From assembly GCF_030384885.1 (NCBI RefSeq), contig NZ_CP128613.1: a stretch of DNA of 64,000 nucleotides. One strand, written 5' to 3'. Source of the DNA: Escherichia coli. Lineage in GTDB: Bacteria; Pseudomonadota; Gammaproteobacteria; Enterobacterales; Enterobacteriaceae. This document shows, piece after piece, positions 4,413 to 4,925 of the stretch; the first letter of the stretch is position 1; each line of letters begins with the position of its first letter. A program made the translations under genes and the position numbers. The notes under the pieces were generated by a model. It was not told where the DNA came from, did no database searches, and was given only the letters and a program-made list of their open reading frames with translations.

Positions 4413-4925
4413 TTAGCTGAGGCGTTGAGGGCCAGCACGGATACCTTGCGCCTGGCTTATCCAGACGGGCGTGCTGAATTTTGCTTGCGGGGTAAAATGC
4501 GCATAATCAATGCGATAACCCTTTTCAGACGGCGTGCCTTCCTGGGTCAGCAGCGCGCTGAGCGTATCCAGTAATGCAAGATGTTGCGCCTGAAGAGGCA
4601 AAGATTCTTCAGCAACGGGCAGCGTTTGCGGTGCCATTGCGAAGGAAAGATGACGGATTACCGTGCGAATGGCATGTTGATGCCAGTAATCAACGGAATA
4701 GTTCGAATTCGGGCGGCGCGTGTTCGCTTCCAGCAAGGCCAATTGACCAAAGTTAACTTTGGCTGAAGGCTCGTGGTTGCGGGTTGTCGCTTTTGCGGGC
4801 GCGTTTGGTTCGGCGGCGTTGCTGAGCGCAGGCAAACCTAAACTCGCCGCGACCATCCCTAATAAGAGATGCGGCCAGAAGTAGCGTTTACCAAACTGTC
4901 GCCAGCGCGTCAGTATTCCACTCAC
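4413..4925 (-). CDS. secM: secA translation regulator SecM (arrest peptide)
   Basis: Arrest motif [17 protein letters not shown] near the C-terminus; start set at the GTG (V52 of the longer ORF) to give 170 aa; immediately upstream of secA. Confidence 0.8.

Follow-up and report, generated by a model that had tools for sequence, protein, structure and literature searches.

Does the segment at positions 4413-4925 of the E. coli DNA analysed here (a stretch of 64,000 nucleotides of contig NZ_CP128613.1, hereafter the window) encode a genuine SecM, and is the regulatory unit that this gene would form with secA intact? A first-pass annotation had placed a SecM arrest peptide at these positions, upstream of secA and with a GTG start codon; it described the arrest motif and the secM-secA unit as intact and proposed alignment with K-12 SecM as a check. 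Few arrest peptides have been studied as thoroughly as SecM, for which ribosome structures have been published up to 2026. Judged by comparison with K-12 and with sequence families, the segment is almost certainly SecM proper and corresponds to the canonical E. coli secM-secA translational sensor. The unit found here is already known and nothing about it is new; its value is that of an annotation check only. This genome has the essential secretion-sensing leader of secA in undamaged form, and annotation of the secM-secA region can therefore be transferred from K-12 with confidence. Gene identity, start codon, signal-peptide sequence, arrest motif, synteny and pairing potential were computed here, and stalling, release and induction are taken from the K-12 literature.

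The gene lies on the minus strand, a point that was absent from the first-pass annotation. The plus strand of the segment contains no long open reading frame, and the minus strand contains exactly one, whose 170-amino-acid product begins VSGILTRW. BLASTP shows this product to be identical to K-12 SecM at 169/170 residues with E = 1e-129, which excludes chance similarity and bears out the proposed alignment. The Pfam SecM model PF06558 scores 195.9 bits against a cut-off of 25, with residues 24-167 placed on profile positions 1-146 of 147, and the NCBIfam equivalog NF002799 (“secA translation cis-regulator SecM”) scores 231.2 bits against a cut-off of 100. An 821-nt region spanning lpxC-secM-secA is 100% identical in E. 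coli 2013C-4282, where the secM annotated by RefSeq (1736..2248; WP_000014320.1; product name “secA translation cis-regulator SecM”) maps exactly onto window positions 4925..4413; the bounds originally given for the gene are thus those of RefSeq. RefSeq also annotates secM of K-12 MG1655 (b0097) from the equivalent GTG. The features of the locus, and two genes discussed at the end, are listed in Table 1.

Table 1. Coordinates of secM, secA and associated features, and of two genes in the apaH-folA spacer
Feature	Position	Strand	Basis or remark
Hairpin and U9 after lpxC, intrinsic-terminator-like	5077..5129	minus	direct fold; bounds the secM leader region upstream
secM coding sequence	4413..4925	minus	170 codons and TAA; translation, BLASTP, RefSeq bounds, Pfam/NCBIfam
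secM start codon GTG	4923..4925	minus	same start in RefSeq (2013C-4282, K-12)
SecM signal peptide, codons 1-37	4815..4925	minus	residues identical to K-12 SecM; features read from the sequence
SecM arrest sequence F150–P166 (17 aa)	4428..4478	minus	codons 150-166; translation, BLASTP
Pro166 codon CCT, A-site codon of the stalled ribosome	4428..4430	minus	
5' arm of predicted secA-masking helix, CUCAACGCCUC	4419..4429	minus	codons 166-169; MFE fold, three inputs
Codon 170 AGC (Ser); ACC (Thr) in K-12	4416..4418	minus	alignment with K-12
secM stop codon TAA	4415-4413	minus	translation
secM-secA spacer, 61 nt	4352..4412	minus	three substitutions relative to K-12
3' arm of predicted helix, GGGGCGUUUGAG	4360..4371	minus	ends 8 nt before the secA ATG
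secA, regulated gene, 901 aa	1646..4351	minus	ATG 4351-4349; RefSeq “preprotein translocase subunit SecA”
“Plasmid pRiA4b ORF-3 family” / IS1096-passenger-TnpR-like gene, 615 nt	60914..61528	minus	PF07929, 175.9 bits
CcdB-family remnant (truncated pseudogene), 72 nt	60797..60868	minus	beside the pRiA4b ORF-3 gene

Identity to the characterised K-12 protein, which covers residues 1-169, supports the assignment of a putative N-terminal Sec signal peptide. The corresponding features can be recognised in the SecM sequence: a basic n-region formed by R7, R9, K13 and R14, a hydrophobic core and an SNA-AEP site. A signal-peptide length of 37 residues and cleavage before AEP are established knowledge, reportedly going back to the work of Sarker, Rudd and Oliver in 2000. 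The hairpin that follows lpxC has a predicted energy of -24.2 kcal/mol (z = -4.5), and 0/200 shuffled sequences were equally stable. A promoter and terminator scan of 4300..5300 returned nothing above shuffle expectation; the simple scan did not pick up the lpxC terminator, whose loop is too long for it, and the hairpin was found by direct folding. A frame of only five codons (ATG GCA ATA ACG TGA; 4922..4936, minus strand) starts inside the Shine-Dalgarno (SD)-like sequence GGGAUGG that precedes secM, and its TGA overlaps the secM GTG (ACGTGA). K-12 has the identical short frame, which probably arose by chance.

The arrest motif was described at the outset as intact, and re-translation gives the same result: codons 150-166 are undisrupted, as in K-12, and the motif F150xxxxWIxxxxGIRAGP166 is letter-perfect, followed by QRLS and the stop codon. 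The sequence is identical to the 17-aa stalling sequence in PMC4737659. It also agrees with the nascent-chain models of PDB 8qoa, 9vvi/9xwo and 3jbv, which belong to a set of structures in which the SecM peptide was solved in stalled ribosomes (8qoa, PMC10951299; 9vvi/9xwo, PMC13249984; 3jbv/3jbu). The one nucleotide change from K-12 within the motif, at position 4443, is synonymous (Gly161, GGT for GGC). Two other strains depart from this motif or its surroundings. Strain XDL carries S157N, at a non-critical position within the arrest motif. Strain UID2404240040 (NZ_CM142664.1) lacks one C from a CCCC run in codons 145-146; the annotated secM of this strain is 468 nt long and stops ahead of the arrest motif, which could be a real loss or a homopolymer assembly error.

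The sole amino-acid difference from K-12 SecM is T170S, which the first-pass annotation did not mention. It affects the last codon, four residues past the arrest point. A 46-nt probe over the Ser170 codon was matched exactly in 2357/5424 genomes, including O157:H7; counted by this exact stretch, the Ser170 allele occurs in at least 2357 genomes (~43%), and it is therefore a common natural allele. The protein WP_000014320.1 is annotated in several other lineages that carry Ser170. The substitution is harmless.

Directly downstream of secM lies a full-length secA in the same orientation, so that the description of the gene as a leader upstream of secA holds; the gene order lpxC-secM-secA is that of K-12. 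The sequence following the Pro166 codon is predicted to pair with the sequence upstream of the secA ATG in a helix of eleven base pairs, in which 4429-4419 pairs with 4360-4371 (GGGGCG-UUGAG). The helix is present in both the MFE and the centroid structure for all three inputs (window segments of 176 nt and 94 nt, and the corresponding K-12 sequence). Its 3' arm would contain the secA ribosome-binding site, an SD assignment that is presumptive. In energetic terms the helix is unexceptional, with z about -1.7 and 7-11 of 200 shuffles folding as well. Both arms are identical to those of K-12. Among ten E. coli alleles, taken from the best down to the weakest match, the 5' arm is invariant in 10/10 and the 3' arm in 9/10, the exception being strain MP1, in which one G of a G-run is deleted. 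Covariation in the helix was sought among these ten alleles and none was seen; because the arms do not vary within E. coli, covariation neither supports nor contradicts the helix. A search of the whole window with Rfam at gathering thresholds gave five matches, all of them elsewhere, and no family for the secM-secA leader.

These elements can be arranged in the mechanism described for SecM of K-12 (PMC4737659, PMC10951299, PMC6340945, PMC13249984). The window gene would encode a 170-aa exported protein whose nascent chain arrests the ribosome that is making it. The stalled ribosome, holding the Pro166 codon in its A site, would cover the mRNA immediately 3' of that codon, which corresponds to the 5' arm of the predicted helix. 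On geometric grounds, occupancy of the 5' arm should free the 3' arm, in agreement with the published model (PMC4737659; PMC6340945). Without a stall, the 5' arm would pair with the ribosome-binding region of secA, which lies 8-19 nt ahead of the ATG; stalling would open the helix, and secA would therefore be translated. In K-12, stalling breaks up the structure between the two genes and makes the SD of secA accessible (PMC4737659), and the stall is relieved when the Sec machinery pulls on the chain bearing the signal peptide (PMC13249984, PMC6340945). Similarly, the signal peptide encoded here would engage the Sec machinery, and the resulting pulling force would release the stall; poor secretion would therefore mean a long stall and more SecA. 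From the identity of all known functional elements, we infer that stalling at Pro166, release by Sec pulling and up-regulation of secA are likely to apply to this locus. The original statement that the secM-secA unit is intact stands at the level of sequence, in that gene, start, motif, synteny and helix arms are as in K-12.

The alternatives to this reading concern the gene itself, its start codon and its quantitative behaviour. That the open reading frame is a chance or degenerate feature rather than a functional gene is refuted by its near-universal occurrence in E. coli (the 821-nt region is found as a single copy in 5424/5426 complete genomes), by the BLASTP alignment, by PF06558 and NF002799 scores far above their cut-offs, and by a substitution pattern of purifying selection. 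It is very improbable that the gene is secM but that translation begins elsewhere. The frame is open upstream as far as TTG 5078, giving an ORF of 221 aa, and GTG 5000 and ATG 4856 (Met24, downstream) are also in frame; the GTG start therefore needed checking. TTG 5078 falls inside the U-run of the terminator-like hairpin after lpxC, and no SD-like sequence is present in the 20 bases ahead of either TTG 5078 or GTG 5000, whereas GTG 4925 is preceded, 7 nt upstream, by GGGAUGG (4939..4933, minus strand). Substitutions relative to K-12 change the amino acid in 4/5 cases in the upstream extension of the frame, against 1/7 downstream of GTG 4925, where 6/7 are synonymous; this pattern supports coding from GTG 4925. 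A start at Met24 would delete the basic n-region of the signal peptide. These observations led to the rejection of all three other starts. The secM start site is said to have been revised by Sarker, Rudd and Oliver in 2000, a GUG start reportedly being established in that work. RefSeq uses GTG 4925 in both 2013C-4282 and K-12, as the first-pass annotation had proposed for the window, and the chain in PDB 9vvi begins MSGILTRW, matching the same start. The preferred reading is hence a secM translated from GTG 4925.

A different alternative accepts that secM and its start are correct and that the unit is intact, and holds that the unit has been quantitatively re-tuned in this lineage, the spacer changes and Ser170 altering the loop and shifting basal secA expression. 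The junction allele is indeed rare: across the 171 nt from 4330 to 4500, only 3/5424 genomes are at least 99% identical, and the nearest other allele sampled is 98.2% identical, differing at 4443 (the synonymous change in Gly161), 4396 and 4373. The three spacer substitutions relative to K-12, at 4396 (T), 4384 (G) and 4373 (A), all lie in the loop between the helix arms. The G-to-A change at 4373 abolishes a small CCGC/GCGG hairpin predicted in K-12, and the predicted junction fold of the window is 2 kcal/mol more stable than that of K-12 (-40.5 against -38.5 kcal/mol). Against re-tuning, every change lies outside both helix arms and the arrest motif, so that no functional element is touched; the energy gap is within prediction noise; and Ser170 alone is already present in ~43% of genomes. 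Re-tuning of the unit is therefore considered very unlikely. Slightly less likely still is the more specific proposal that the spacer changes, above all G-to-A at 4373, which adjoins the 3' arm, might have a measurable effect on how stable the masking structure is or on its kinetics, and might thereby reset basal SecA in this lineage. The reading preferred here, an intact and canonical secM-secA sensor, includes the assumption that the quantitative behaviour of the junction allele is the same as that of K-12; this is only assumed because the 171-nt allele is rare.

Two observations from the genome survey concern the distribution of the secM region. No match of any kind to it was obtained in 2/5426 complete E. 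coli genomes, and 3/5424 matches sit on records labelled as plasmids.

The closest characterised counterpart of the locus is K-12 SecM (b0097, NP_414639.2), which shares the locus arrangement lpxC-secM-secA-mutT, the GTG start and the length of 170 aa. The signal peptide, the whole arrest motif, the 61-nt length of the spacer and the helix arms are likewise the same; the differences are T170S (ACC to AGC), six synonymous changes in the coding sequence and the three substitutions in the spacer. The protein WP_000014320.1, found in E. coli 2013C-4282, O157:H7, APEC and many others, is identical to the window SecM, but the junction DNA allele of the window is common to only 3 complete genomes at >=99% identity. 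Wider parallels exist with ApdA and ApdP (of the RAG/P and RAP/P types), MifM, VemP and CliM, in which, as in SecM, a self-stalling peptide exposes the start of a downstream gene for localisation machinery. These peptides are unrelated in sequence to SecM, occur in other bacteria and control other downstream genes. ApdA and ApdP have the conformation of the arrest module in common with SecM (PMC10951299; also PMC10987492 and PMC13183943). The SecM_small family (PF10818 / NF038363) shows weak similarity to the window protein over the N-terminal signal-peptide region. With both models the score stays under the curated threshold (20.9 against 26.1 bits for PF10818 and 25.9 against 45 bits for NF038363), and on this basis SecM_small identity was rejected; the window protein is of the long, classical SecM type.

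Beyond the secM locus, the window aligns collinearly, at ~96% identity and in reverse orientation, with K-12 48.6-112.7 kb; there are two structural differences. One, the most notable side finding of the analysis, is the apaH-folA spacer (60797..61571), which measures about 770 bp in the window and about 75 bp in K-12 and contains the two genes given in Table 1. The full insert is present in only 2/5426 complete E. coli genomes. In a further 1828 genomes the match to the insert query is confined to its first ~60 nt, a stretch that is annotated in the matches listed as a CcdB family protein gene. It looks as if the insert has replaced the chromosomal ccdAB module, a rare event at a site known to vary. 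The other difference is the absence of setA, which encodes a sugar exporter and occupies about 1.26 kb in K-12, from between leuD and sgrS/sgrT (33774..33815), where about 40 bp link leuD to the terminator side of sgrS. The leuD-sgrS junction is contiguous in 2143/5426 genomes, and presence or absence of setA is therefore a common polymorphism.

Two of the Rfam matches lie within or beside coding sequence. RF02797 (PssrA) matches at full length with 106.9 bits, against a gathering score of 69, at 7317..7406 on the minus strand. PssrA stands for “plasmid-encoded Shigella sRNA A”, a name at odds with the position of the match, which is chromosomal and extends from the 3' end of ftsA across the spacer into the opening codons of ftsZ. 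RF02057 (STnc40, a Salmonella sRNA) matches with 77.6 bits at 1602..1670 on the minus strand, overlapping the last codons and stop of secA and the spacer before mutT. Lastly, in the araD-araA spacer (44577..44672) the two BLAST segments obtained against K-12 overlap and small indels are present, which suggests that this spacer differs from K-12 in repeat copy number.
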